Origin: a virus
Reading direction: 5' to 3' (one strand)
Length of the DNA: 44,073 nucleotides
IMG/VR virus record: IMGVR_UViG_3300045988_151777
Span: 1 to 44,073 of that record
Shown: positions 3,677 through 25,300 of the stretch, one piece after another
Position numbering within the stretch: the first letter of the stretch is position 1
Layout of the letters: each line of letters begins with the position of its first letter
The notes under the pieces: model-generated
Database searches by the model: none
The model's input: only the letters and a program-made list of their open reading frames with translations
What the model was told of the DNA's origin: nothing
Position numbers and translations under genes: made by a program

Positions 3677-4446
3677 AAATGACACAAGAACTTATTCCCC
3701 TCACCATTTCCGCTATCGGTAACGAAGAACAAAAGACCGTGAACGCCCGAGACCTTCACGCGTTCCTCGAAGTGAAAACCCGTTTTAACGATTGGATCGA
3801 GCGTCGTATCGCTGACTTCGGTTTTGTGGAAAGCGTTGATTTTGTGTCGGTTACTCAAAAAAGAGTAACCGGCGGAACCCAAACCGATTACTTCCTTTCC
3901 CTCTCTATGGCGAAAGAAATCGCCATGGTTGAACGGAACGCGAAAGGCAAGCAAGCCCGTCTATATTTCATCGAATGCGAGAAAATCGCCAAGGCGAAGT
4001 CCCTCCCGACTCAGTTCCAAATTCCCCAGACGATGCAAGAAGCCTTGCGTTTAGCCGCCGATCAAATGGACAAGAACGCCGCGCTTCAGAAACAGATCGA
4101 AGCGGACGCGCCAAAAGTCTCGGCTTACGACGATCTCGTAGACGACACGGGGCTTTTCACCGCCACCGCCGTCGCGAAAATTCTGCATATGAAACGTTGC
4201 GACCTGTTTACTTGGTTAAAGCGCAATCAGGTTGCTTATCAGCAAGGGAAAGATTGGCTTCCTTATTCCACGTGGGAAAAGAAACAATGGGCCGTTGTGA
4301 AGATCAGAGAGTTGGACAACAAGAAAACCGGTGAACCTATCACCAGCCGACGCCTTCGCTTCACTGCCGCCGGAATCTTTCAGATGCACAAAATGATGCA
4401 GGCGCAGAAAATCAACGTGCCCGAACAGCTTGACCTCGACATTTAA
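3673..4446 (+). CDS. Antirepressor (AntA N-terminal domain plus KilAC/ANT C-terminal domain)
   Basis: ARDLHAFLEVKTRFNDWI...MAKEIAMVERNAKGKQARLYFIECEK matches AntA-type domains. The C-terminal half resembles KilAC. ATGA overlap with the upstream ORF. Confidence 0.75.
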   Translation: MKMTQELIPLTISAIGNEEQKTVNARDLHAFLEVKTRFNDWIERRIADFGFVESVDFVSVTQKRVTGGTQTDYFLSLSMAKEIAMVERNAKGKQARLYFIECEKIAKAKSLPTQFQIPQTMQEALRLAADQMDKNAALQKQIEADAPKVSAYDDLVDDTGLFTATAVAKILHMKRCDLFTWLKRNQVAYQQGKDWLPYSTWEKKQWAVVKIRELDNKKTGEPITSRRLRFTAAGIFQMHKMMQAQKINVPEQLDLDI

Positions 4447-4753: not shown

Positions 4754-5369
4754 AGTCAAATAAAGATCTAGATTTATAGAATCGCGCACTTTTACTCTTG
4801 CAATTGTTTACTACGGTTGCAACACGATTGTCCCGTTCTGCCGAATCTTCTATCTCCATCTGAGTAATAAGACCTCCGTAAAAACTGTCTGACTTTGCTT
4901 GCTCTTTATCTAACAATCCATTTTCTACCAAACAATCAAAATAAATCGCGCTTGCCTTGTCTTCTATCACATGGTTATATTTTTGAACTCCTAATATTAA
5001 AAAAAATACCAATAGGATAGAAAGAACGATAAACACTACGTCTCTTCGAAACACCCGTGACGACAAGAGCCTAATTGTTGCGCTACCGCCCGCTACGACT
5101 CTGTCTTTCACGGTCAGGGCAGAGAAAACAACCGGCCGGCCGGCAATATGGATCATCACCTGTTTTGCTGCCGGCTCAAACCGAGAAAACAAAACGGCAT
5201 CAATTACCCCGTTATATCCTTTCGAGCGACATAGCACCTCAAGTTTGGCCTTTGCTACATCTACATCTAAATCTGCAATGTCTATCAGATTTTCAGTTTT
5301 AATCTCTATCAGGCCAGGATAATCAGTGTCACCTTTTAGTTTTAAAGTAAAAGTTTTCAACTGTCTCAT
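4752..5369 (-). CDS. Single-pass membrane protein of unknown function (205 aa), integrase-coupled cargo
   Basis: AT-richer than its surroundings. TM helix VVFIVLSILLVFFLILGV. The start overlaps the integrase stop (ATGA). Confidence 0.7.
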   Translation of the reverse strand: MRQLKTFTLKLKGDTDYPGLIEIKTENLIDIADLDVDVAKAKLEVLCRSKGYNGVIDAVLFSRFEPAAKQVMIHIAGRPVVFSALTVKDRVVAGGSATIRLLSSRVFRRDVVFIVLSILLVFFLILGVQKYNHVIEDKASAIYFDCLVENGLLDKEQAKSDSFYGGLITQMEIEDSAERDNRVATVVNNCKSKSARFYKSRSLFD

Positions 5370-6661
5370 ACAGTTTCCTTCACCTTACTGAAACAGTAAT
5401 CCGCCCACGCCTGCATCAGCTCACGCCGCCGGCGCAGGTACTTATTCCGGTTGTAAGCGCCGTTGTATTTCTTGTCGATCTTGTGGTGCAGCGCCTGTTC
5501 CACCACCAGCGAATCAAAACGCTGATCGTTGTCGTATTCGTCCGATAGTGCCCAGGTGCAGAACGTCCCGCGAGCAGTGCCATGCTGGGTGGGGATAATC
5601 GGATCATCTTTTTTGCCGCGCTCTTTTGTCTGGGCTTTGTCGATCCATATTGGCAACCCTGCAGCCTTTCGGGCTTTATTCGCATCCTTAATTAATGTCG
5701 AGAATATTGACTGGCAGTAATGATTGCCTTTTTCACCCACAAATACCCAACCTTCTTTTTTTATACCAACGCTTTTTAAAATATCAATTGCCCGATCTGA
5801 TAACGGAACAATAAGAGCGCCATTAGATTTTATTTTTAGATCGATGCGCTTAACCCACCATACTTTCTCGTTAAGATCAATGTCTTCCCATTTAGCAAGC
5901 CGCGCCGTCTTTGAACGGGTAGCGGTCAAAATTGAGAATAAAAAGAGTTTTGCACTATCGTTCGGATTCTCGGTTAATTCCTTGATAAAGTCAGGCAAGT
6001 CCTCTGCGTTTACCGCGCCATAATTTTCAGTCTCAATATCGTTCTTTCCCAAGAGGTGCTTTAATGGACCGTTCTTATCGGCCGGGTTAATCCATCGATC
6101 GGTCTCTTCGGCATAAATCCAATCGAAGGTATCTTTGATTGAGCGAAGGCATCGGTTAAAGACAATGGGCTTATCGAGTAGGTTTTTCTGAAGCTGTACC
6201 ATATCCTTCGGGACAATCTGATCGATCTTCATATCACCCAACACAGGGAACACGTGGTTTTTCCAGTTAGACGTAAAGTCCCGATCAGTACCAGTGCCCT
6301 CCGTCCAGTCCCCAACTTCGAGTTTATGTGCTCTATATAGAAGAGCGGCTTCTTTGAACGTCGGGATCTTGGACGCCTTCTCCTGCTGCTTCGCCTCCTC
6401 TTTGGCCGCGGCCTTCTCCTCAAGATGCTTCAAGAAATCGTCTGCGGAGAGTGCCCGAAGTTTTGAGGCTTCCCGCCGGGCAGTGGCTAAATCCATTGTC
6501 GCACCGCCCATGCCGAGTTCAATGCGCTTGCCGGCAATCTGTCGCCGGAAGACCCATGAGCGATACTCACCGCGGACACGGTAATAAAGGCCGACTACCG
6601 ACCCGTCGTTATGGAGACCATCGGGAAGAGAAGCGAGTTTTGCTTGTGTGAGACGCGCCAT
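5366..6661 (-). CDS. int: Tyrosine integrase, P4-type (DUF4102-like arm-binding N-terminus)
   Basis: The N-terminus LTQAKLASLPDGLHNDGSVVGLYYRVR is typical of P4-like integrases. The C-terminus carries HGTARGTF, LHH and a tyrosine-containing segment. AGGAGG lies 8 nt before ATG 6661, and the track start 6715 is less likely. Confidence 0.85.
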   Translation of the reverse strand: MARLTQAKLASLPDGLHNDGSVVGLYYRVRGEYRSWVFRRQIAGKRIELGMGGATMDLATARREASKLRALSADDFLKHLEEKAAAKEEAKQQEKASKIPTFKEAALLYRAHKLEVGDWTEGTGTDRDFTSNWKNHVFPVLGDMKIDQIVPKDMVQLQKNLLDKPIVFNRCLRSIKDTFDWIYAEETDRWINPADKNGPLKHLLGKNDIETENYGAVNAEDLPDFIKELTENPNDSAKLFLFSILTATRSKTARLAKWEDIDLNEKVWWVKRIDLKIKSNGALIVPLSDRAIDILKSVGIKKEGWVFVGEKGNHYCQSIFSTLIKDANKARKAAGLPIWIDKAQTKERGKKDDPIIPTQHGTARGTFCTWALSDEYDNDQRFDSLVVEQALHHKIDKKYNGAYNRNKYLRRRRELMQAWADYCFSKVKETV

Positions 6662-7054
6662 AAAGTAGACCTCCTGGGAGGTGGTGGTAAGAAGTTCTGC
6701 CACCAGTTTTTCCACCAGCCTTACTTTACAACGAAATGAACTACCTTACACTACCTTAAAGTGACGAGTAGAAATTGACAAGGCCTTGCGCCTGATTTTG
6801 AACGAAAAACTTATACTACCTTGCACCACCTTAAACTACCTGCGCACAATAAGAATGCGTTTTTACGGGACGTTTAACAACCAATAATTGCAAGGCTTGC
6901 AGGTCGTTGTTTAATTTTTCCACCAGTATTTCCACCAGTATTCATAGGAAATTGATAGAATCCATTCAGATGTCCCGAGCGCCTTCGAGCGCCTGAGACA
7001 CGGAACCCCGAGCGCCGCAAGGTACCCGGGGTTCAATTCTGCCCGAAGGCAGCG
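6662..7054. promoter_or_regulatory. attP-like region with arm-type repeats and hairpins
   Basis: 20-nt direct repeats at 6741-6760 and 6816-6835 (CTACCTTRCACYACCTTAAA). TTCCACCAG repeats near 6700-6718. A perfect 12-bp tandem at 6918-6941. Hairpins at 6993-7024 and 7039-7052. No ORF. Confidence 0.55.
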
Positions 7055-7243
7055 TCAGGCTTCTTTGCAGACAGCTTTGATGGTTGCGATAGCGCACCAG
7101 GCTTTTTCAAGCACCCGCACGTCCTCGTCACTCAATCCGCCTCCATCACGGGCCTCATCGCACACCTTGTCGATCTTTTCGAGCAGGCAGTGCATGGATT
7201 GCTCCGCGCGGGCTTTCATAAGTTCCTTCGTTTCCATAATCAT
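7055..7243 (-). CDS. Hypothetical protein (62 aa)
   Basis: ORF overlapping the upstream gene by 4 nt. It is the last gene before the attP-like region. Confidence 0.6.
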   Translation of the reverse strand: MIMETKELMKARAEQSMHCLLEKIDKVCDEARDGGGLSDEDVRVLEKAWCAIATIKAVCKEA

Positions 7244-7575
7244 TCTCCATGCCGGTTCATGATTTCCTTCAGCGCGTCTAAGTCACTTCGATCAGGCTTG
7301 TAAGGCCCTATAGAGAACGGATGCGCTTCGAGATTCTTTGAGGCTTCGCCGTACAGCAGGTCCACATCGATGCGGTTTTGCTCATCCACCGCGCCCAAAG
7401 ATTTGAGCATCGGCAGGTAAGGTTCGATCATCGCCGGGGCCCGCTGTGCGACGAGCCCCGAGACGATGCCGACGGCGAAGGGCAGAGAACCGCCCTGCTT
7501 TTCTGCGGCCGGGATGAGGACTCGCTGAGCAAATTCCACAACCACTGCAGGCAAGTTTCCGATCGGCATTTTCAT
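7240..7575 (-). CDS. Hypothetical protein (111 aa)
   Basis: ORF tightly packed after 7579..8214. Confidence 0.65.
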   Translation of the reverse strand: MKMPIGNLPAVVVEFAQRVLIPAAEKQGGSLPFAVGIVSGLVAQRAPAMIEPYLPMLKSLGAVDEQNRIDVDLLYGEASKNLEAHPFSIGPYKPDRSDLDALKEIMNRHGE

Positions 7576-7578
7576 GGC

Positions 7579-8214
7579 TTAACCCCGGTTAACGTTGATG
7601 CTGCCAGTCACCGGCTGAACCGCCGGAGCCGCGGCTGTGGGCGCAGTCCAGCTGTTGTAACGTTCCATCACTTCAGGACAGATCGCGGTGCGAGGCACGA
7701 CGAGGTGTGTGATCTGGTTCAGCGTGTTGTTGATCCCTGCGACGGCGTTGTTGAGCTGAGCGATACCGCACCCGCACGTCTGCGCAACAGTGTCGATCTT
7801 GGCGCCGAGTTCGGAGCGAACAATCTTTTCACGCAGGTCAGCGATTTCAGCGTTGCTCTTCATCTGGGATTCAAGCACCGCAACGCGTTCGCGGTTGCTC
7901 GCGGATTCCTGAGAGAGCGGCTTAATGTAGTCCATCAGACGGTTTTCGAGCTTCTCGTTTTCGGAGCGCGTCGCCTGATAAAGCGCCGTGTCCTGATTGT
8001 CCGAGTACTTCTGCGAAGTGAGCTCGGCGATTTTGGCGTCCTTTTCAGCAATGACGCCAAGCGCGGCCATCTGCGGGGCGCAGTTGTTTCCACCGAAGAG
8101 GCCGCCGAGGATTCCGTTGCCGTTGTTGGCGGAGCCAAGGAAGCCGAGAGAGCCCAAAACGAGGGCGGGGATGCCTACGCCGTTGGCGAGGCCTTTAGAA
8201 GCAAATTCAGCCAT
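7579..8214 (-). CDS. Hypothetical protein (211 aa) with a glycine-rich hydrophobic N-terminus, coiled-coil middle and Cys-containing C-terminus
   Basis: ORF with SD CAGGAG. N-terminus GLANGVGIPALVLGSLGFLGSANNGNGILGGLFGG. The start codon lies inside the hairpin 8211-8236. Confidence 0.7.
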   Translation of the reverse strand: MAEFASKGLANGVGIPALVLGSLGFLGSANNGNGILGGLFGGNNCAPQMAALGVIAEKDAKIAELTSQKYSDNQDTALYQATRSENEKLENRLMDYIKPLSQESASNRERVAVLESQMKSNAEIADLREKIVRSELGAKIDTVAQTCGCGIAQLNNAVAGINNTLNQITHLVVPRTAICPEVMERYNSWTAPTAAAPAVQPVTGSINVNRG

Positions 8215-8236
8215 GACAAAACTCCTGTTGTCATGG
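8211..8236 (-). promoter_or_regulatory. Translation-initiation hairpin sequestering the start codon of 7579..8214
   Basis: The mRNA reads CCAUGACAA-CAGGAGUU-UUGUCAUGG. This is a perfect 9-bp stem with the SD in the loop and the AUG (8214-8212) in the 3' arm. Confidence 0.6.
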
Positions 8237-8273
8237 AACTCGTGGTTCTCTGGAAATGTGCGCTCGGTTGGCG

Positions 8274-8477
8274 CTAAGGATTAGGCTCAGGGGCCTTGTG
8301 TGAAGCAGAATCCGAACGGTTCTGCTGACTTGATTTATTGTATACAGAAAGATCAAGCACATCAAGCGTCTTGCAGCGCCGACATACGATCATCACCGTC
8401 CCGCCGGGCGGACGTTCTAACGAAAGATCGAAGAGACGTTTACCGCACCTCGGGCAAACAACCTTTACCGCTTCCAT
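8274..8477 (-). CDS. Mu Com-like zinc-ribbon protein (67 aa)
   Basis: VVCPRCGKRLFDLSLERPPGGTVMIVCRRCKTLDV has the CxxCxKxLF...CxRCK layout of Mu Com. AGGAGGG lies 6 nt before ATG 8477. Confidence 0.65.
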   Translation of the reverse strand: MEAVKVVCPRCGKRLFDLSLERPPGGTVMIVCRRCKTLDVLDLSVYNKSSQQNRSDSASHKAPEPNP

Positions 8478-8478
8478 C

Positions 8479-8847
8479 TTATTCCCTCCTATTAATATTG
8501 TCTCGAAGATCAGAAAGAACCGCGTTGAGCGATGTTTTGTCACCGCGGCCACAGGCCAAGACTAGCTCGGTCACGAGCGCGTTCCGGAAAGAACACAAAA
8601 TGCCAGAGAAGTTTCCTCGGCGTGTGATCACTTGGGCGCGGCATTCGTCTGCAGAGAACTCATCGACCATGCGCCGCACGTACCACTCAGCCTTCTGTAA
8701 ATCCAAAAGCTCTGTGCCCTTAAAAGGCGCTCTCAGTATGTACTTCACGGCATTCCCCAGGCAAAAACTCAGATGCTGAGTAAGCTCAATCACCTCGTTG
8801 TCGTAATGCTCGGCGTAGTGCTGAGGATGATTTACAAGATCGGTCAT
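8479..8847 (-). CDS. DUF3310-family protein
   Basis: VNHPQHY...NEVIELTQHL...GNAVKYILRA signature recalled from DUF3310 phage proteins. Confidence 0.65.
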   Translation of the reverse strand: MTDLVNHPQHYAEHYDNEVIELTQHLSFCLGNAVKYILRAPFKGTELLDLQKAEWYVRRMVDEFSADECRAQVITRRGNFSGILCSFRNALVTELVLACGRGDKTSLNAVLSDLRDNINRRE

Positions 8848-9254
8848 TTAAGAATCTCCGTCAGTGCGTCGTGGTTTGCGGCGCATCGCTGATAGAGTCT
8901 GCCGCACTCTGAACCAGAGTCAGCCAGTCGGCGAACCAAGCCTTCCAACTCGGCAACTCGCTTTCTAAGAGCGTCTCCGGAACCTCCGCCGGCGGTGCTG
9001 TGACCGTCCGCGTGGCGCAACCGGGCGCGAGCACGATCAAGCTCAGAACGCAGATCGTTGTACTCAGCCTGCGCCAAGTTAATCGTGTCCGTTGCTTTTG
9101 AAAGTCCTTCCGCATTCTTTCTCTCCGCCACCCGCAGTGCGTCAGACTGCGCCGCCTCCATAAGCGCGATTTCTCTGTCGTAGTGGGCAGAAGTCAGCCA
9201 GCCCCCCGCCCCGAAGGCCAGGACGACCGCCACTATGTAGACGTAATCTTTCAC
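8844..9254 (-). CDS. i-spanin (Rz-like)
   Basis: N-terminal TM helix (YVYIVAVVLAFGAGGWL) followed by a coiled-coil periplasmic domain. GTG start overlaps the upstream stop. A lipoprotein ORF is embedded in another frame. Confidence 0.7.
   Translation of the reverse strand: MKDYVYIVAVVLAFGAGGWLTSAHYDREIALMEAAQSDALRVAERKNAEGLSKATDTINLAQAEYNDLRSELDRARARLRHADGHSTAGGGSGDALRKRVAELEGLVRRLADSGSECGRLYQRCAANHDALTEILK
8861..9115 (-). CDS. o-spanin (Rz1-like lipoprotein) embedded in the i-spanin gene
   Basis: Alternate-frame ORF with the signal/lipobox-like VLSLIVLAPGC, followed by a proline-rich mature part (ATRTVTAPPAEVPE). Confidence 0.55.
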   Translation of the reverse strand: MRKDFQKQRTRLTWRRLSTTICVLSLIVLAPGCATRTVTAPPAEVPETLLESELPSWKAWFADWLTLVQSAADSISDAPQTTTH

Positions 9255-9499
9255 AGCTCAACCCCTTCGAGTTTCGCGCGATTTCGTAATATGTCGAGAT
9301 AGCCGTCCATCGTGTAGAGCTGGAACATATAAAGGCCACGGGGACAAGTCGGCGTAAAGCCTAATTTCCCAGTGTCCAATTTAACAAGCATTGCAGCGAG
9401 TTTGTCTCGCCGAATCTTCAGTTGCAGGTACTCCGCCTTGAAGCGATCTTTGTAGTCATCGCTACACATCAGCGCGGCCGTGTCTTTGAGCTCCATCAT
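9251..9499 (-). CDS. Hypothetical protein (82 aa)
   Basis: ATGA overlap with the endolysin stop at 9496-9499. Helical sequence of a type seen in many phages. Function unknown. Confidence 0.6.
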   Translation of the reverse strand: MMELKDTAALMCSDDYKDRFKAEYLQLKIRRDKLAAMLVKLDTGKLGFTPTCPRGLYMFQLYTMDGYLDILRNRAKLEGVEL

Positions 9500-9873
9500 T
9501 TGCGACTCCTGTAGTCCCAATAAGCGTGATGGCCACGCACGTCAACATGGACGAACGCGTCGTAAAGTCCGACGCCACCGTCAGCGTTGATTTCCAGGCA
9601 CAGGTCCTGAAACTCCGGAATCAATCGCGGATCATCCGGTCGAATGTCCGCCGCCATGCCTTTCGTGTGATAGCTATTCGGCACGGCACCTTTGATCGTT
9701 GCGTTGTATTCCGGGCTTCGGTAGCCCGAATTAACGAGAACCGGCTTCCCCCACTCGCGACGAATGCGGTTCAAAAGGTTCAAAAGCTCATCGCGAACAA
9801 CGTGCTGGAAAGGAGACTTGTGCGGGTCATTCGGACTCTGCAACTCCTTTTCGTCAAAGAAACCGTATCTCAT
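9496..9873 (-). CDS. Endolysin, peptidase M15-type (zinc D-Ala-D-Ala carboxypeptidase/L-Ala-D-Glu peptidase fold)
   Basis: The SGYRSPEYN...SYHTKGMAADI...VHVD pattern is typical of Peptidase_M15_3 / YcbK-like enzymes. Confidence 0.8.
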   Translation of the reverse strand: MRYGFFDEKELQSPNDPHKSPFQHVVRDELLNLLNRIRREWGKPVLVNSGYRSPEYNATIKGAVPNSYHTKGMAADIRPDDPRLIPEFQDLCLEINADGGVGLYDAFVHVDVRGHHAYWDYRSRK

Positions 9874-10006: not shown

Positions 10007-10360
10007 TCACTGGATACCCAGATACTTTCTGACTGCAGGAAGCACAATTCCAACCGCCTCCTTGCCAATCATTCCGCCAAGACCAGCCATCGCCCCGCCA
10101 AACTCATAACCAAGTCCATAAGCGTGGCAAGCCATGCAGATACACAACCCCATAATCGCCGACGCCAAAATCGCTGAACAGAAGTCGAGCCAACGGAAAG
10201 GCTCTCCTTTCGACGTCCGATTCAAAAACATTGCCGCCTGTGCAATAGCTGCTACCCCCGCGGAAAAAAGGTAGGGAAAAGTCTCGCTGTGTTCCTGCAT
10301 GGGAATCTCGTTCTCGTTGACTACCGCAAGTAAACCAGACGCGCAAGCCAACAACTGCAC
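10007..10360 (-). CDS. Holin-like multi-TM protein (start uncertain: GTG 10360 or ATG 10300)
   Basis: Three or four hydrophobic helices. It lies immediately upstream of the endolysin. The motif copy overlaps the GTG start. Confidence 0.55.
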   Translation of the reverse strand: MQLLACASGLLAVVNENEIPMQEHSETFPYLFSAGVAAIAQAAMFLNRTSKGEPFRWLDFCSAILASAIMGLCICMACHAYGLGYEFGGAMAGLGGMIGKEAVGIVLPAVRKYLGIQ

Positions 10361-10444: not shown

Positions 10445-10843
10445 ATGAAAACTTCTTTATGTTTCGCAGCGCTTTTGCTTTCGTCTGCCTTTCTTGCGGG
10501 GTGTCAATCGCCTACAACGATTGTTAACACTGCACCTCAGCAAATCACTCTTGGCACCGTACAAAAATCCATCCATAAGGGGATGACTCAACCCGAAGTT
10601 ATCGCCGAACTCGGGGCCCCCACTATGGTGACTCGCGACAAAGCAGGCATTGAAGTTTGGGTTTACGACAAAGCAAGCACCATTGCCACGACATCAAACG
10701 TTTCAGGCTACGGCACTCTGATTCTCACCGGAGCCTCTGGACACCAATCCGCCAGCGTTGTCACACAAAAAACACTGACTCTGATCCTTAAGTTCAAGGA
10801 TGCCGAACTTTCGGAATACTCTTACCGTTACTCATCCTTCTAA
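10445..10843 (+). CDS. Lipoprotein, BamE/SmpA-OmlA-like (moron)
   Basis: Signal peptide plus lipobox (SAFLAGC). ITLGTVQKSIHKGMTQPEVIAELGAP...VWVY resembles the SmpA/OmlA fold. It is on the opposite strand to the surrounding late genes. Confidence 0.65.
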   Translation: MKTSLCFAALLLSSAFLAGCQSPTTIVNTAPQQITLGTVQKSIHKGMTQPEVIAELGAPTMVTRDKAGIEVWVYDKASTIATTSNVSGYGTLILTGASGHQSASVVTQKTLTLILKFKDAELSEYSYRYSSF

Positions 10844-10853
10844 GGGAGTTTCC

Positions 10854-11342
10854 ATGAAAAAATTGTGTTTCTTGGCGTTAGCCGCACCGATGCTTCTTGG
10901 GGGCTGTGTCACCGTTGATTCAGTCTTTGGCGAATCCGATGCGCCACTGTCAGCTGTAGCTCTCCAAGCGTTGCAGACACGAGAATTTGAAGCCACCGAG
11001 GATGAAGCGTTCCGCGCTGTGATTTCGACTTTCCAGGATTATGGTTACACGATTTCCTCTGCCGATAAAACGACAGGACTCGTCCTGGGGAAGACCACTT
11101 CGGATGCTTCTTTCAGCCGAATGTCCGGAATTGTTCGAGTGGAATACAACAAGGCTTCTGCCTTCATTGAGAAGGTAGCTCAGAACCGCGTCAAGATTCG
11201 GGTCAGCATTGTGAAATATGTTTCCGCAAGAACTGAATTAGGCGGCGGTGGAGAAAAAGAAGTTGTCCGCACAAAGCCTCAGATGTATCAGGATATTTTC
11301 AACAAGATCGAGCAATCGCTCTTCCTGAAGAAAAACATCTAA
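10854..11342 (+). CDS. Lipoprotein of unknown function (162 aa, moron)
   Basis: AAGGGAG lies before ATG 10854. MKKLCFLALAAPMLLGGC provides the signal and lipobox. Confidence 0.7.
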   Translation: MKKLCFLALAAPMLLGGCVTVDSVFGESDAPLSAVALQALQTREFEATEDEAFRAVISTFQDYGYTISSADKTTGLVLGKTTSDASFSRMSGIVRVEYNKASAFIEKVAQNRVKIRVSIVKYVSARTELGGGGEKEVVRTKPQMYQDIFNKIEQSLFLKKNI

Positions 11343-16316: not shown

Positions 16317-16335
16317 TCAACAACTGCACCCCCTA
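16317..16335 (-). promoter_or_regulatory. Conserved late-region motif, copy 4 (TAGGGGGTGCAGTTGTTGA)
   Basis: Identical 17-mer. It includes the TAG stop of the giant ORF and lies 42 nt upstream of the fibre ATG. Confidence 0.6.
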
Positions 16336-19300
16336 CTCATCGATCTTTCCGGAGAAACCGAACAACGGTGCCAGAACGGCGTCCACGCCCTCGGCCTGGC
16401 CGGATTCGATGGCACGGACGCCCTTGATCGTCCGGTTGATCTGCGTGGACGGTGCACCGGTCAGAGAGCCGGCAATGTCAACGAGGGCTTTCAACCCACG
16501 CCAACTCAAGGGATCAGTGGCCGCCTGCATTGCATTGGCCGTGTTGGCAATCATGCGGGTGCCGGCAGGGCCGTTATAGCCGAACAAAGGTTCGCCGGCG
16601 ATAAGCGACTTGGCCGTGCTGGAGACCTCTCGCAGCCCCAAGAAAAGCCCCAGGTGATATTCGACCACGGCACCCAAAGGTTTACGCAGCCACTGTTTCG
16701 TCCAGTCCTCATCGTCGTCATCATCCGAGTCATGCGCCTGCAGCGCCTCACGGAACAACGACTCAAGTACCGGCATCACGGCACCCATGAAGAGCAACCG
16801 TGCCGCAGCCTTCGCCCGGTCATTCTCGCCCATAGCTTCCACGACACCCATATTGAGCGCCGCGTTCATCCACGAGTAGAAGACCGTGAAGAGTCGCGCC
16901 CCCTGACTCCGTTCAATGGCGGACAGATCAGACACATTACCGGACGACTGCGTATCAATCACCACCTGGTCAGCCATAGCAATCGCCTTGTCCTCGGAAT
17001 TCCCCTCGCGGGTGTAACGCTCATAGGCCGCCTGCCACGCGATGGAATCCACGATATTTTGCATGATGGTCATCATGACGTAGGAGTGATCTTTGAACCA
17101 GTGCTTGCCAGACTCAAGCCGGTTCCGAACCTGCGCGATTTCACGGTTCTGCGTGAGTCCGCGCAGACGCATGGCTTCCGACTTCTTGGTGATGGCTCTA
17201 TGCAACCCCACCGGATCCGAAATGAACTTCCCGACGGCCGTCATCACGGGGGCGATCCCTACGCGCGGGATGACGTACCCTATGCCCGTCAGCTGGACAA
17301 AGGCCGACGTGACACTGAAGCCCATCGTGGCAACGCCAACATTCGCCGCCATGCGGTTGACCCAACTGTCGGCAGAGTCACGGCCGCCTGTAGCAATGTC
17401 CTTGCGCCAGTCTTCGAACTGCTTAGCCACAAGGTAACCATACCGCTCCTTAATAGCCTGACGCAGTCCAGAGTCCCGGCCGTTCACACCGTCCAAAACA
17501 CGCTTGGTTTCGATCAGCCATTCGTGCCAAGCCAGATCATGGATGACATCATTGAAGCCTTCATATAGGGCTGCTAGATCGATTCGAAGCGGCATGTGCA
17601 CGTCACCCTGCGCACGGGACTTGGTGAAGGATCGGCGCGTCGTGGCGGACTGGTAGGCACCCTGCATTTCCTGCCGGACATCGTTGGCGTCGGCGTACTT
17701 GGCCGCGCGGTTCGATCCACGGGGGTCAAACTTCACCGGATAGTAGCCGCCGGACACCTGGATGATTTTCCCTTCGGCCGTCTTCACCATGAAGGGCTGA
17801 TAGTCGATCCACTCAGGTTCCGTGCCGAATACCCGCTTTTCCTTCTCCGCAATAAGCGGACGCAACTCCTCGAATTGCTGCCACACGGCTTCAACGCCCC
17901 TCCAGTCGGCTTCCGTCAACGTAGCGAAAATGGCCTGCAGCGCTTCATCCGTGAATCGACAATCGCCATCCACCAGGCGCTGACGGTTACTGTCGTTGCC
18001 GCAGTTCAATGCCACAGCGATTCTTTGCCCGTGTGTGAGGGGCTTGGAGAACCCCGGGATGATTACCGGGTCTTCATCCTGGCTCTTCTTAAACACCGGG
18101 GCCAGCTTTTCGGCCAATGTCTTCGAGACCTTGGCGCGCATGGAGTTTTCAAACGTCGAACGCTCGTTGGCCGAACGGATGAACAAGTTCCAGAAGAAAC
18201 CGCCCGACTGGTTCTGGTCGAAGATTCGGCACCAGGACTGAATCTTGACGTGGTTCAACAAGAACTGATGCACGTTGTCGCGCCAGCGCTCCCAACGGGT
18301 AAAGGGTACTCGTTCGTTTTCAATGACGTCACGCCCCTGGCGGTCGGCCGCTTCCTTAATGGCCTCCTTGCCCTCCTTCACAATTTCATCAATACGACCC
18401 AGTTCCTCCGCAAGGTTCTGGTTATAGACGTTACGGCCCAGCGTCTCCAGCTGCTTCAACACCGAGAAGAAGTCCTGAGAGTCGTAGCCCGTCATGTCCT
18501 TGGCGTGCTCGTGCGAATCAATGAAGCGTTGCAGTCCTTCAATCGGCGTGCCGGCGTCCTCGACCTCCTTAATGAGTTCCTGCAACTGCGCCGGATCTGC
18601 GGCGAGTTTTCCGAAATCCTCCCGCTCCTTGGCCGTCATGCTCGCCACGCTGTGGGCGTCCAGCAGGGCCAGGATCAGTTTCTTGTAAGCCGGGTGAACG
18701 GTCTTACTCTTCATCGCCCGCTTAGCCATACGCACGCCACGCTGATAACGGTCGAGGGTTTCAAGGGCCGCACGAGCCATTTCGTGGTTAAGCACCTGAC
18801 CGCGCTTCGCTTCAAGGCATGCCCCGAAGTCAGCCTTGCGCATCGCTTGTTCGGCCATGGCGGCACAGCGCCGTTCGGCATTCATGAAAGTCCCCGGTCG
18901 AATGTCCGACAACTTCATGTTGCCGATCTGCTCAACCGCGTATTCGCGGGCGGCCGAGACCATCAGCTGCCGCTTGCCGAGAGCACGCGCCAGGGCATTA
19001 AATTCAGCCGTAATGAAGCGGGAACGGGTTTCGTTATGGGCGGCAAGGTTCGACTGCAACTCGTCGAATGCATCGGGATTCATGCCGCCCTCAATGCGCA
19101 CCTTGTAGGCCACGGACTTGATGGCCTCGGTCTTCGCGTCGTTCATGGACTTCAGTTCGAGTAGATCTCCGATAAGTCCGACGACGTCCGTCGTGCCGGC
19201 GGTATTGGCCAACACTTCAGGAGAGACCCCGCGGCCTTCCGTCACCCACCCGCGATCCATCAGCAACTGTGCCGTTTCCGCATCAATCCCGCAGCGGCTC

Positions 19301-22300
19301 AGCGGCTTGAGTTCAATCGTCATGCGGGACGTCGTGCCGTCCTCGCTCTTGAGGCCGTGCGTCAGCAACGACAACGCCCGGAACCGCGGTTCTTCCAGGA
19401 TTTCGTCGGTGCGCTTGTTCACTTCGTCCCTGCGTTCCCGCAGGATGCGGCGGGCCTCTTTGCGGCGAATGTTGCCGTAGATCCGCAGCACCCCGTGAAC
19501 GGCCTTAGCGATAAGGCCTTCGGCTTCTTGCGTCGCCTCTTCGTTGAGGGCGTTGTAGGCCGCCAGCTCCTCGTCGGTCATCCCCAGGCGCTTGCCGATC
19601 TCGCCGTCGAACAATGCGCGCATACCAAGTTTCTGCTGGGTCTCCATGGCCTGCTGTTCCGTGGCGAACATGAGGTCATAGAGCTTTCGGACTTCCGGGC
19701 TGATCGGGTGCGGTTGCCTTGTGGCCTGCGCGTAAATATCCATCAACCACTTTTTGAAGCGGCCGAAGATCGTCTTCATTTCTGCGTTCGGCGACACACC
19801 TTCGAGCAAGTAGGATTCGAAGCCCTCAGCAAAGAGCTCGTGCATCCCTCGCTGGTCATTGATTGGCATTGCGGCCCACGCACGGACAGCGGCAGCCACT
19901 GTCTTGAGATCATCGGTCACGCCGAGATCAAGCACGCCTTCCTGTTGTCCCCAGCGGAAAAACCCGCCGAGATTCGTGAGGAAGGCTCTCTCCCCGTCTG
20001 TCAACTCGCCGCCGGCCAATACCTTGTCCGCAATATCCTGCGCCAGCATTGTGTCGGCATCCAGCCATGCGTGAGCGGACTCATGCAGGAACGTGGACTT
20101 GTCGGCGCTTTCCATCAGCGTCATTACCCCGCCTTCGCCCGGACGTACGTCGCCGGCGTTGCTGGGCATCATGCTGCCGCGGGTTCCGGATTGTTCCGGC
20201 TGCTCGAGGATGTTGAGAATCTTGAGGGCCGTATCGTCCCAAATCACAGCACAGTTGCCGTCGGGTTCGCTGAAGTACTCAAGCCCCTTGATACCATAAA
20301 GGTTGAGGAGCTCGGAGGCCTCCTTGCTGCCGCCAGCATACGCCGTAAGCCAGCTGTAGACGTCGCGCCCTTCGGTCGAATCCTTGCCGATGAGTTCAAT
20401 CACCTTATTGCGGGCATCCGCTCGCGGGGACGTTGTGCCCTTGTCCAGGTCGTCCATGCCTTCGGCCACCAGGTCGAACGCCAAGTTCTGCAGCGCTTTC
20501 CGGACAACCACCGGCTGGTCAACCATAGCGGCTTCTTCGCTCAGAAGCACATCCGAGTCCGGAATTTCCGTCCGGTAAACGCGCCCCTCCGTGCTGGGCG
20601 TGTATTCGATGCTGTAGTCCTTCGGCTGCTGGTAGATCTTCGCGAGTTCGTTCCGCAGTTTGGACGACGTCGCCTTATCCACTTGGCCGCGTTCCGTGTC
20701 CTCGTTGAGGCGCTTGATGGCCGTCTCGGCCGCGCGCTTCACCTGCGCAGGCTTCGGATGCTTCTGCGTGCCCGGCATCTCCCGCAGCACCCACGTTGCG
20801 GCCAAGTCTTCCATGTCCGCGCTTTCGAGGTTGCGGCTGACGGGCTTCCCGTTCACCGTGTATTCCCCACCGCCGGCCAAGGCATCACGATAGCTTTCGG
20901 CCGTCTTGCGGTTCATGGCGAAGTAAAGGCCATAGCCGTGCTGCTGCGTGCCGGCGCCGGCCCCAATGTGATCCAGTGTGAAGCGGTCGAACTTGAAGGG
21001 AGAACCGTGGTAAGCCGTCTGGGCATACGCACCGGCAATACCGAGCGCAGCCTTTTCCTCGGCCTCGGCAAAGAAGGTGCCGATCTCTTCCGGAGAAGCG
21101 GAATCGAATTCGGTGTCGTCTACAATGCGGCCTTCCGGCGTGTTGTAGGACAGGGCCAGGTAATTCCCTTTGGAAGAGTTTTCAAGGATTCCCAGCTGTG
21201 CCGGCGTCGGCGGCCGCGAGATCGACGCGACTCCGTGAGCGGAATCGATTCGCATTGCACCGGTACGGGCCATGAAGTCATACATCGCCTGAACACCGCT
21301 TGTGTCCATGACTTCCGCGACGTCTGCGTGATCGACCTGACGGCCGTTAACGTCTTGTTCTTCAAGGCCCCAATGGCGTCCGGAGCCGTCCAACATCGTG
21401 CCGTCCGGAAGAATATAAAAGGCCTCGTCAATGTTATCCGTCGTGCCGAAGTTATCCACTGCCTTGCGGAGCAATTCTTCGTCCGGCGTGAAAGCGTTTT
21501 CGGAAGACTGGAAGAAACCGGTAGCCAACGCATTGTCAGCGTCCGGAAAGACTTCATGCACCAAAGCGTCGTCCGCTTCAGTCCACGTAATGTAGGGGAA
21601 GTTGTGCTTGATGCCGTTGCTGGGATCCTGGGCCAGCTTCTGCAGCTGGATCATGATCTTGCCGGGCACCTTGTACGGATCCAGCTTTCGTTCGATCTGC
21701 CGGCCATGTGCCGACGTCACGGCTGCGGCGTTGAGCGCCTGGACGCGACCCTGATACTGCGGCCGCACATTGTCGTGCTGATCCCCAAGAAGGCAAACGG
21801 CACCACCCCGGCCGAAATGGTGGACGATGTAACCGTCAAAGCCGGCCGCCTTGATAAAGTGCTCTGTCCACGTAAAAGCCCAGTCGTCGTTTGAAGACTC
21901 CTTGCGGCCCTTTGCCAACAACCCCAGCGGGTCTTCATCAAGGTCGTAGATATTGTTGAGCCAAATACTGTGCGCTTCGCGGCCAACACCTTCTTCCGGA
22001 ATGATCCCCTTTCCGGTGTCGAGATAGAAGTAGATGCGGGAGTAAACATCGCTGAGCGGCCCGGTCTTAGTGAGGCGTTTCAGTTCTTGGCCCTTCAGAC
22101 CGGTACCGTAGTAGCGAGAGTTGAGCGACGGCCGGTTGACCGCACTCATGTGAATGCCGAGTACTCGAACCGCATTGGGGCGGCCCTTTTCACCGTACTC
22201 AGCCGTAGTCGGTACGTCAGACTCGCGGACTATTCCGCCTTCGAATCTTTGGCCGCTTTCGCCCGGCGATCGTGTTCCGCGAACACCGCCTTCGGCAGAT

Positions 22301-25300
22301 CGTTCGTCCACCGATCGTACACCGCCTGTTCCTGCGGTGTATACCCCTGACTGTCCGAAGCCTCTTGGGCGGCTTGCGATTTTTGCTTTAATCGCTTGTG
22401 CCAGGCGCTTGTCTGTTTCGGACTGAAGATCAGCATCGTACCCAGCGGATGTTTCTTGTCGAACTCCGCCGCTTCTTCCGGTGTCATTTCTCGCATTTGT
22501 CTTTTCCTCTTCGGAGTAGGGCTCAAGGAAACCCGTGTAGGCATCTGAGACGCGATACACCATCTGGTCACCATAGCCTTCAACAATCGAGTTAAGCCCC
22601 GCTTTAATTGCCTCAATGTTCTCGGCGCCAACCGAAAGCATCATCACACCGCCGGCGGTGGACTGCCCCATAATCAGGCGTTCGCCGTTGGAGTCACGGA
22701 TCTGGTCGATATGGTTCCGGTAAAGGTCATCGACCTGTGCTTCGGTGAAGCCGTCCGGCAACTGGATTCGGATGACCTTGCTCGTGAACATTCCCTCGCC
22801 GTTGGTCTGGCTGATAGCCATAACCGAGTCCTGTCGCAGATAGGATGCTAACAGACGTCCGACCTTGACATAGTCTCCACCATCGGCAATACGACAAAGA
22901 ATCGAATAATTTGGGTCACCGAGATAGCCGCCGCGCTGAAGCTCAGGTTCACCAATGTGGGCATGAGTTTGTTCGGCCACACGCTCGAGCAACCACGGGA
23001 CGATTTCCCGAGTCACCGCAAGTTTATCCGCCGGCGACAATTCGTTCCACTGGGCCACGGCTTCCGCGTTGTTCGGATCCGGTGCGGCCTCCATCGTAAG
23101 CACCGGCTCGGGTTCCGGCTGACGGACGTCGTCGTAAAGCGTGACGCCGCTGCGGTCGTAGGTCTCCGTAATCCGGTCATTGAAAGGCGTGTCCTGCCAC
23201 GACAGTTTCGACAAGCCGCCGGCCGCGTCGAAGATCTTCTGTCGGGCCTCATCCGCCGAAATCTTGCCGGCGTCGAACTCCTTCCAAATGTCGTCAACCA
23301 CTGAGCGCAAGACTCGTTTGCGGTTCGGCTCAAAGAGGACTCGCACGGCCTCCCAGGTAATCGACTGTATCTCACGGGGGCTGAGGCCCACGCGTTCGGC
23401 CGCACGGCGGTAGGCTTCAAAGTGAAGCGGGTACGTGCCGTTCTGGCCGGACGTCTTGTTGCCGACGGCGCCAAAGTTGTCCTGCACCGGCTGACTGTTG
23501 GAGCTCTGAATCGTCAGGGTATCCGCACCCACGGCATGCGTGTCAATCGTCGCGGCCTTGGCGTTACTCGGGTCGTAAAGATTGTTGTAGAAGTCGCGTA
23601 CCTTGAACTGCGTACCGATCTTGTCATAGATGTTGTCTACGCTACCGTCCACGATAACCGATAGGGCGTCGGCGATGGACTGCGGGTTAAAGAAGAACGC
23701 CTTCGCCGGCTTCCCCTGACCGCCGGGCACACTCGCCAAACCGCCTACCCCGCCTTCAGGAGTGAGCACGTTGTAAGTGGACGGATTCGTTACGGCATCG
23801 TACGCGCGCACCCACAACGCGGCTCCGCGCATCTGATCGGCCTGAATGAGTTCTTCCAGGGACTTGCCCTTGATCTCGTCGAAGCTGACCTTCTTATCGG
23901 ACTCGCACAGAGTTTTCAACGCCGTCTGCATTTCGGCCGACGGCTTCTCGCGCCGGGCGCTGAAGTAAATATCAAACAAGCGTTCGGCGTTGGTCATGTT
24001 GTTGAACCAGCCGTTCTGGGGGCTGAAGATGGCAATCACGGCCGCCACCTGACGCAAGCGCAGACCGTAGCGCTGAGCCCACACACGGGCTGTCTTGTTG
24101 CCGCCGTCATACCACAACTTAGCGCGTTCACGTTCTGCCGCCGGCATCTTGTCATAAAGCCAAACAAGATTGTCGGCCATAAAGTCAATGATGCGTTCGG
24201 ACGCCTTACCGGCATTCCGGACACGGCCAACGGCACCCTTTACGCCGGGGATGGTTTTCATGGCCGCCACGGCGCGTTCAAAGTAGCGGCTGTTTTTCTT
24301 GGCTTCAGCGAAGTCTGCCCACTGCCGCGCGAACCGCGGGTTCGGGTAGTCCCCCTTCTTCACGGCGGCCTCAGACGGCATAGCCGTGGAAAGCTGCTGT
24401 TGGAACGCCGGAGTTTGCGACTGCTGCCGACGGATCCGTAGATTCATCTTGCCCATGATTTCCTTGGGGCTCAATCCGGTCTGCTTGGCACGGATAGCCA
24501 GCCAAGAAGCCCAGGGACGCGTCTGCAAGTCGGCCACATCTTCAGCCGTGCCGGCGTCGATCAACTGCTTGCGAATAGCGGCAACCTCGGTGTCAATGGC
24601 CTTACGCATCTCGGCGTCGGGCTTCGTGTCCTTCACTATCTTGTCGAAGGCCGCCACGGCTTCCTGTTTGCCGTTCTTCATGAAGTCCTCAGCCTGACGC
24701 GGACTCATGCCGTCGGCATCTACGCGGGACTCATAAAGGAGACTGTTGGCCGCTGCTTCATCCGTCGCTGCCAACTTCACGACGTCAGACACGGGGATAG
24801 CAACGTCGGACTTATTCTGGGCTGCCGTCTCAATGCGGGCCGCGAGTTCCGGAGCGGCCTGGCGAATCTTGTCTGGAACGCCGGCATCCACCAAGTCCTG
24901 AGCAAACGAGAACACGGACTTATCCTGGCCGACGTCGTTGGCCCATTCGGCAATCGTCTGGCCGTCCTTCACCTGTGTCCCCATGGCGGCCACGGCGGCC
25001 GTCACCCTCTGCATATTCTCGCCCAGCACCTTGGCAGCCTGCGCCTGTTGCTGTTGCGCGTTGTAGGCCGCGTTCACTGAAGCGCTCATAGAGACGACTT
25101 CCACCGGTGCAGACGTGAGTTCCCCAATGGCTTCAAAGAGGACGTCGGCCCAGTTGATTTCGTCACCGGCGGCAAGCGAACCGAGCGCTTCGCCGGCGCC
25201 GCCTAAGACACCCTGCAATCCGGCCTGCGTGAGGTGGTTCTCAAGGTTGTAGCCCCACATACCCCCGCGGGACGTCGGCGTTGCAGAGCGGGCCATACCG

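Follow-up and report, generated by a model that had tools for sequence, protein, structure and literature searches.

Com-type translational activation has, to our knowledge, been studied experimentally almost only in phage Mu. The RNA site of Com is a short hairpin with the loop 5'-CC(N)2-3GAG-3', closed by pairing of the first C with the last G, and it lies beside a translation-inhibitory structure (PMC6483171). In Mu itself the site AUGC-CUGCGA-GCAU is followed at once by CCCAC-GGAGAAACAUU-GUGGG, whose loop contains the Shine-Dalgarno (SD) sequence and whose 3' arm contains the GUG start codon. Gating of cargo other than Mom by Com homologues is already documented: they precede DNA methyltransferase genes in FluMu, Pnm1 and B3 (PMC3299994), and Pseudomonas com-like (PF10122) genes precede ∼90% of lectin-like bacteriocin genes, along with other tailocin cargo, a lytic enzyme and levansucrases (PMC6240691).

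Here we describe a locus in the IMG/VR virus record IMGVR_UViG_3300045988_151777, analyzed over its positions 1 to 44,073 (the whole stretch of 44,073 nucleotides [nt], referred to as the window). An earlier note, made from the letters of this DNA, had read the locus as a Mu Com-like zinc-ribbon gene upstream of a start codon locked in a hairpin. We computed the homology to Com, the fit to the hairpin motif, the covariation of all helices, the occlusion of the start site and the co-inheritance of regulator and sites. The Com homology, three Com-type hairpins that had gone unnoticed, compensatory base changes and co-occurrence across loci support the earlier reading, and we consider it likely that the locus is a Com-type translational switch gating a gene for a protein of 211 amino acids (aa). 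The elements concerned, including the regulator open reading frame (ORF), are as follows.

8274–8477, minus strand: zinc-ribbon gene, 67 aa
8283–8296, minus strand: candidate site A, AGGC-CCCUGA-GCCU, within the last codons of the zinc-ribbon ORF (N = 3)
8260–8274, minus strand: candidate site B, GCGC-CAACCGA-GCGC, its first base being the last base of the stop codon (N = 4)
8236–8248, minus strand: candidate site C, GAAC-CACGA-GUUC, its last base being the first base of the start-codon hairpin (N = 2)
8236–8211, minus strand: putative translation-inhibitory stem-loop CCAUGACAA-CAGGAGUU-UUGUCAUGG (the start-codon hairpin), with a perfect 9-bp stem and an 8-nt loop
Between the zinc-ribbon gene and gene 1, minus strand: leader, 59 nt
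7579–8214, minus strand: gene 1, the putatively gated gene, 211 aa
7240–7575, minus strand: gene 2, 111 aa, predicted to be helical and probably soluble
7055–7243, minus strand: gene 3, 62 aa, helical, with a 4-nt overlap with the end of gene 2

The locus shares with Mu com-mom a small protein with an N-terminal four-cysteine zinc ribbon (RC..C.K.LF ... I.I.C.RCK) and a disordered tail, a C-G-closed C...GA hairpin directly 5' of a stem-loop whose loop carries the SD and whose 3' arm carries the start codon, and a place at the far end of the late genes. It differs in having three tandem hairpins where Mu has one, an inhibitory stem of 9 bp rather than 5 bp, and a regulator ORF that stops 59 nt before the target start, whereas in Mu it overlaps the target. 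The cargo is unrelated to Mom, the protein falls below the PF10122 threshold, and this phage, unlike the transposable Mu-like phages, integrates by means of a tyrosine integrase. Other Mu-like Com systems (FluMu, Pnm1, B3, the Pseudomonas phages JD024 and UMP151, and the Escherichia phage Chuche), in which Com homologues precede DNA adenine methyltransferase or Mom-like genes, likewise join a Com-like gene to non-Mom cargo, but there the cargo is a DNA-modifying enzyme, the hosts are gamma- and betaproteobacterial pathogens, and the Com proteins are found by BLAST from Mu Com, unlike the window protein. On the RNA side, the JD024 leader carries tandem CAGC-CGCGA-GCUG and GCGC-CAUGGA-GCGC hairpins (the GCGC...GCGC stem being that of site B), and the UMP151 leader carries tandem AGGC-CGAGA-GCCU and GCGC-CGCUGA-GCGC hairpins, with the stems of sites A and B; multiple sites are therefore not new. 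The Pseudomonas com-like loci, compared by gene arrangement and cargo, also place a short Com-like gene before accessory cargo beside the lysis cassette of a phage-derived element (PMC6240691); they differ in encoding identified secreted toxins and enzymes, where the window has an unannotated three-gene module. What is new here is the lineage (Sutterellaceae gut phages with an integrase), a protein divergence beyond the family models, three tandem sites, the covariation evidence and the unannotated cargo.

The zinc-ribbon protein begins MEAVKVVCPRCGKRLFDLSLERPPGGTVMIVCRRCKTL and has the layout C-x-x-C-x-K-x-L-F ... C-x-R-C-K (Cys8, Cys11, Cys32, Cys35), ahead of a low-complexity C-terminal tail. 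Its gene has the SD AGGAGGG at 8484–8490, an ATG 1 nt past the stop codon of the DUF3310 gene upstream, and the stop codon TAG at 8276–8274. The four cysteines are invariant among 10 relatives. A profile built from ten relatives at related loci matched Mu Com in hhalign over the whole zinc ribbon (96.0%, E 3.8e-9) and matched four annotated Coms (Mu, Chuche, JD024, UMP151) at 96.7% (E 4.2e-10), with the common pattern (V/I)RC..C.K(R/L)LF ... I.(I/V).C.RCK. There was also a PHROG match (phrog_6417, "translational regulator," E 5.2e-5), and sub-threshold PF10122 matches appeared in four out of 10 relatives (best E 0.0031). Pairwise BLAST to Mu Com was weak, a tblastn search of isolated phages gave nothing relevant, a word-based protein search returned close relatives only, none of them named, and the profile hit only generic zinc fingers among the sequences of solved structures. 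The Mu Com-like layout ascribed to this ORF in the earlier note is present, and the hhalign scores and the PHROG match support a remote but significant relationship between the zinc-ribbon protein and Com.

We noted several further features of this gene. In a sub-clade of six loci (L004, L007, L010, L016, L018, L081; at ∼3755–3967 in each locus) C-x-C replaces C-x-x-C in both knuckles (VRCRCGKRLF ... ILCRCKT); as the two one-codon deletions match, this looks like a functional variant and not an error. The Com-like ORF of this sub-clade, which includes a Duodenibacillus massiliensis isolate genome, continues through hairpins A and B. Within the zinc-ribbon ORF of the window, a weak sigma-70-like promoter match (TTGATG-17-TACAAT, 9/12; 8337–8365, minus strand), if used, would give a transcript with the leader and without the regulator gene. 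A further hairpin, AGCAGAACCGUUCGGAUUCUGCU, with a stem of ∼9 bp, lies toward the 3' end of the ORF, immediately before site A (8304–8326, minus strand), and relatives have different hairpins at the equivalent position.

Downstream from the zinc-ribbon gene, and separated from its stop codon by 37 nt, is the 9-bp hairpin that contains the start of gene 1. The SD AGGAG (8226–8222) is in the loop and the AUG (8214–8212) in the 3' arm, an arrangement already described in the earlier note and now confirmed both in the sequence and in the predicted fold: the hairpin belongs to the minimum-free-energy structure, and the AUG has a predicted probability of 0.00 of being unpaired. Such hairpins were found with a custom scan; a simple repeat search gave palindromes only. 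Across eight variants the start-codon hairpin is 100% paired and shows two compensatory pairs, G-C to A-U and A-U to G-C. Its conservation with compensatory changes in relatives, together with its position, places it beyond chance.

Ribosomes could in principle melt this hairpin by translational coupling, on finishing either the zinc-ribbon ORF or a 44-aa ORF at 8231–8365. The TGA stop of the latter lies inside CCAUGACAA, in the 5' arm, and the L004-type relatives have the read-through of hairpins A and B described above. However, the distance from stop to start varies among loci (33, 38, 59, 68, 81 nt), no conserved ORF ends in the hairpin, and the 44-aa ORF has a TTG start inside another gene and is absent from other clades. 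We rejected this ORF as a coupling leader peptide because it is not conserved, and coupling as a whole appears very improbable.

The three hairpins A, B and C upstream of the start-codon hairpin each have a closing C-G pair and a C-N2-4-GA loop. Site C directly abuts the start-codon hairpin, which is the Mu arrangement (L080, 878–891 beside 892–912). As a lone motif, CCNNNGAGC shows no enrichment in the window; only hairpin context and clustering are informative. Judged by these, the leader hairpins are supported as fitting the experimentally defined Com RNA motif.

We were able to follow these elements across 79 viral and 18 genome loci recruited with the 211-aa protein. The closest isolate locus is a Duodenibacillus massiliensis prophage (L081, on NZ_LT635856), and other matches come from Sutterella, Clostridia and Spirochaetales metagenome-assembled genomes. 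The Com-like ORF stands immediately upstream in two clades, between which the cargo proteins are only ∼30% identical. In an alignment of 18 distinct leaders, 99% of the cells in hairpins A–C are paired and seven out of 11 pairs show changes on both sides; none of 500 shuffles matched the observed paired cells, both-side changes or covariation score, and slid controls were 3%–48% paired. The stem of site B occurs as GCGC/GCGC, AAGC/GCUU and AGGU/ACCU, and the CC..GAG of site C is invariant in 18/18 leaders. Site A falls within coding sequence in some loci and outside it in others, and the reading frame differs, which places the constraint on the RNA.

Regulator and sites are inherited together. 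All 21 distinct leaders with a Com-like ORF have two to three Com-type hairpins, and 59 of the 62 leaders without one have none; in two of the three exceptions, the com-like gene has been inverted away (L015) or frameshifted (L017). The combined pattern of sites A and B was found at 29 loci in 2.9 million IMG/VR viral contigs, all preceding the 211-aa gene family.

The same data bear on whether the hairpins act without a protein, as a constitutive brake, an RNA thermometer, RNase III or RNase E sites or 3'-end stabilizers, with the zinc ribbon having another role. RNA structure is indeed conserved in the helices, some variants having G-U pairs, and a clade with an HTH_17 protein occludes the start site without a Com-like gene. 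Yet the CC...GAG loops are as conserved as the stems, more than a purely structural role would require; the sites occur only alongside the Com-like gene, and no U-run follows any of the hairpins. We therefore think a protein-free role improbable.

In a separate observation, the inversion at L015 (2332–4001) covers the lysis cassette and the com-like gene, which now lie inverted relative to the cargo. The second knuckle of that gene has decayed to FCRKQK, and the three-hairpin leader before the cargo is intact.

The AUG or the SD is predicted to be paired in every Com-bearing clade, in different ways. The sister clade has an anti-SD helix instead of the start-codon hairpin, whose 5' arm GAGUUU(Y)CUC begins inside site C, so that these bases can pair either in the Com hairpin or in the inhibitory helix; UMP151 resembles this clade in that one of its sites extends by its 3' arm into an anti-SD helix. 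In a thermodynamic model, enforcing hairpin C costs the inhibitory structure 2–8 kcal/mol across the Com-bearing clades. In the clade of the window, it strips only the lower extension of the inhibitory helix (2–4 kcal/mol).

A switch at this locus would then work as follows. The zinc-ribbon protein would be produced from the late lysis-operon transcript, on which gene 1 should be untranslatable alone, its AUG being locked in the 9-bp hairpin (in the sister clade, the SD would be locked instead). The protein would bind the loops of the three tandem leader hairpins, and binding at hairpin C, which shares its last base with the inhibitory hairpin here and has its whole 3' arm within the inhibitory hairpin in the sister clade, could tip the RNA toward an open ribosome-binding site. 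The 211-aa protein, and probably also the 111-aa and 62-aa proteins, would be made only after the regulator builds up late in infection. We infer from the computed features that the protein binds RNA, that activation is the direction of control, that the timing is late and that cargo made early would do harm.

Several observations weigh against a Com-type switch. The window protein has no match to Pfam PF10122 (Zn_ribbon_Com) at E ≤ 0.1, and its similarity to Com spans only ∼35 residues of the cysteine-rich motif. The start-codon hairpin is unremarkable when taken alone: the 151-nt fold around it has a z-score of only −1.55, the window has three perfect 9-bp hairpins with 4- to 12-nt loops, and a both-strand count of such hairpins gives six, against a mean of 3.9 in dinucleotide shuffles. 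The 7-nt loop of site B (N = 4) is one base beyond any tested Com site. The 18 leaders represent two main clades and hence few independent compensatory events. Finally, under enforced hairpin C the 8- to 9-bp core and the AUG remain paired in the model for the clade of the window, so the protein must do more to open the site than favor an alternative fold, as is probably also the case in Mu.

Some of these points would suit a coincidence in which a generic zinc ribbon stands beside a chance inverted repeat: perfect 9-bp hairpins are not rare in the window, a three-hairpin Com-type cluster appears in four out of 100 shuffles, and the zinc-ribbon profiles of many families match the window protein weakly. 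Set against the conservation, covariation and co-occurrence across loci whose cargo is only 30% identical, a coincidence is hardly credible.

The pairing of the AUG under enforced hairpin C would also suit a protein that binds the hairpins as a repressor or autoregulator, limiting its own translation or stabilizing the closed form, and hairpins A and B do extend over the end of its own ORF, stop codon included. But the start site is already closed without protein, which would make a repressor redundant; all characterized members of the family are activators (PMC6483171, PMC3299994); and because hairpin C has bases in common with the anti-SD helix of the sister clade, binding there should free the start site. 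We regard repression as unlikely. None of these rivals accounts jointly for the conservation of the loop sequences and the shared inheritance of gene and sites, and a Com-type translational switch remains the reading we favor.

The regulatory part of the locus confirms and extends a known mechanism. Natural variation provides an independent covariation picture of the RNA side: a C-G closing pair, a C...GA loop, sites in tandem, and sites that touch or overlap the inhibitory helix. Because family models miss the diverged protein, Com-like control is probably under-annotated in gut phages, and searches with the Com RNA motif can locate such systems. The three-gene family, large, unannotated and under dedicated control in several phage lineages, is a sensible target for functional work, for which the Com leader and zinc-ribbon gene offer a ready-made on/off handle.

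The 211-aa protein belongs to a family with 1,162 matches from the single sequence and at least 6,600 from a profile search, forming at least 1,044 clusters at 50% identity. Members are stand-alone proteins of 70–271 aa, and no domain fusions were found among 1,044 family representatives. They occur in phages and prophages of Sutterellaceae, Bilophila, Bacteroides, Clostridia and Spirochaetales, spanning four bacterial phyla. The N-terminus has the near-invariant start MAEFASKG and a hydrophobic segment with 27%–38% Gly and a Kyte-Doolittle value of 1.4–1.9 (19-residue window), which we liken to a fusion peptide, with a predicted helix of ∼120 residues behind it. An AlphaFold model from 40 sequences shows a single long helix (residues 48–171; predicted local distance difference test [pLDDT] 63, predicted template-modeling score [pTM] 0.24) and is unsuitable for a fold search. 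The C-terminus carries the conserved motif V-P-x-S-A-I-C-P-x-x-M-x-x-Y-N-S-W. The earlier description of this protein (a Gly-rich hydrophobic N-terminus, a coiled coil and a Cys-containing C-terminus) thus agrees with what we found.

Remote homology searching and structure prediction, which the earlier note had proposed, gave no family and helical AlphaFold models for the 211-aa and 111-aa proteins. No Pfam, PHROG, NCBIfam or PADLOC family was found for the 211-, 111- and 62-aa proteins, nor a credible family for distant members, and the cargo profile hit only generic coiled coils among the sequences of solved structures. The single-sequence model of the 111-aa protein has five helices (pLDDT 62), and a Foldseek search with it against PDB returned nothing at E ≤ 0.001. 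None of the three proteins has Mom or DNA methyltransferase homology in the same four resources, in keeping with the earlier view that the gated gene is not Mom-like. The possibility had been raised that the ORFs would match structural or lysis proteins behind an unconserved hairpin; we found no family match, and the hairpin is conserved.

The two ORFs that follow gene 1 are present as described earlier and are conserved. The 111-aa gene follows the 211-aa gene in 67 related loci, including those of Bacteroides-type phages. The 62-aa gene was found in 23 loci and has weak similarity to a syntenic 56-aa gene of Bacteroides-type phages; most loci have a small helical third gene. The module always ends a tail-fiber or lysis block and often borders an integrase or host DNA. 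Directly upstream of it, other lineages have HTH_17, Sigma70_r4, GerE-like or other CxxC proteins, and in Bacteroides-type phages a tail assembly chaperone precedes it. The annotated context in Bacteroides phage DAC16 is all hypothetical.

Since unrelated lineages each put a different small regulator directly before it, the cargo may be harmful if made early. Our best guess is that the 211-aa product is a membrane-associated coiled-coil protein acting at or after lysis. More tentatively, and with considerable doubt, the cargo could be an unrecognized, very widespread three-gene phage module whose first product is perhaps a new class of membrane-acting late effector (lysis or egress, exclusion, or a bacteriocin-like released factor). 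A two-component spanin was rejected as an identity for the 211-aa protein; a separate spanin-like pair is encoded at 8844–9254, and the family also occurs in phages and prophages of Clostridia, whereas such spanins, in which a membrane-anchored periplasmic coiled coil partners an outer-membrane lipoprotein, are confined to phages of diderm hosts.

Start-site occlusion is not universal in the 211-aa gene family, a proposition we rejected: it recurs in the HTH_17 clade, but the leaders of Bacteroides-type phages are open. In the HTH_17 clade (L021–L031, L129; 60 nt before the gene start), which has an HTH_17 protein upstream and no Com-like gene, a perfect 9-bp long-range anti-SD helix, GACCUCCAA ... 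UUGGAGGUC, surrounds a GC-rich hairpin and is an independent way to occlude the ribosome-binding site of the same gene. This clade also has an extra cysteine-rich protein of ∼142 aa (MCCVPTINVTG...) between the 211-like and 111-like genes (L021, 2654–3082; L129, 6600–7031). At L019/L020 (3662–3919) and L028 (3665–3907), in further clades, the cargo is immediately preceded by other small proteins that have two CxxC pairs and no sequence relationship to Com, and L019 has a 10-bp anti-SD hairpin, CCUCCUGUAU/AUACAGGAGG. The first 24 nt of gene 1, ATGGCWGAATTTGCTTCTAARGG (8191–8214 in the window and the homologous starts in L001–L098), are nearly invariant across four phyla in genes for proteins otherwise 30%–40% identical. 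Conservation of MAEFASKG covers part of this constancy; synonymous sites are conserved too.

The module and the lysis genes, all with coordinates on the minus strand, form a block that closes a long late operon. The flanking elements are as follows.

10007–10360, minus strand: holin gene
9496–9873, minus strand: M15 endolysin gene
9251–9520, minus strand: crAss001_48-like gene
8844–9254, minus strand: spanin-like pair, with an embedded ORF at 8861–9115 that has a lipobox-like LAPGC; judged by eye, without a family match in Pfam or PHROG
8479–8847, minus strand: DUF3310 gene, immediately 5' of the zinc-ribbon gene
7003–7052, minus strand: two GC-rich hairpins, CUGCC-UUCG-GGCAG and GAACCCCG...CGGGGUUC, directly after gene 3
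5366–6715, minus strand: tyrosine integrase gene (Pfam Phage_integrase and Arm-DNA-bind_3), given for context only

The module is thus the last block of the minus-strand late and lysis operon, with the integrase next, as the earlier placement at the distal end of the late operon had it. Homology with relatives ends at the GC-rich hairpins (7003–7052), which close the conserved block and probably also end the transcript; no U-run follows them, and a terminator scan makes no call there. A DNA similarity search with 7000–8900 gave no match among isolated phages, and an Rfam search of 6700–8700 gave nothing. A gap of 340 nt separates the module end from the integrase gene. The adjacency to attP claimed earlier has the neighboring integrase gene as its sole basis, and no tRNA gene was found in an attempt to map attP. 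In the gap between integrase and module, the direct repeat AATACTGGTGGAAA is present in two tandem copies (6920–6950), which may be integrase arm-type sites.

Elsewhere in the window, the structural region contains one ORF of 3,318 aa (16333–26289, minus strand). Two opposite-strand ORFs between the holin and the structural genes (10445–11342, plus strand) have, by eye, signal-sequence-like N-termini with a cysteine and may be moron-type insertions.

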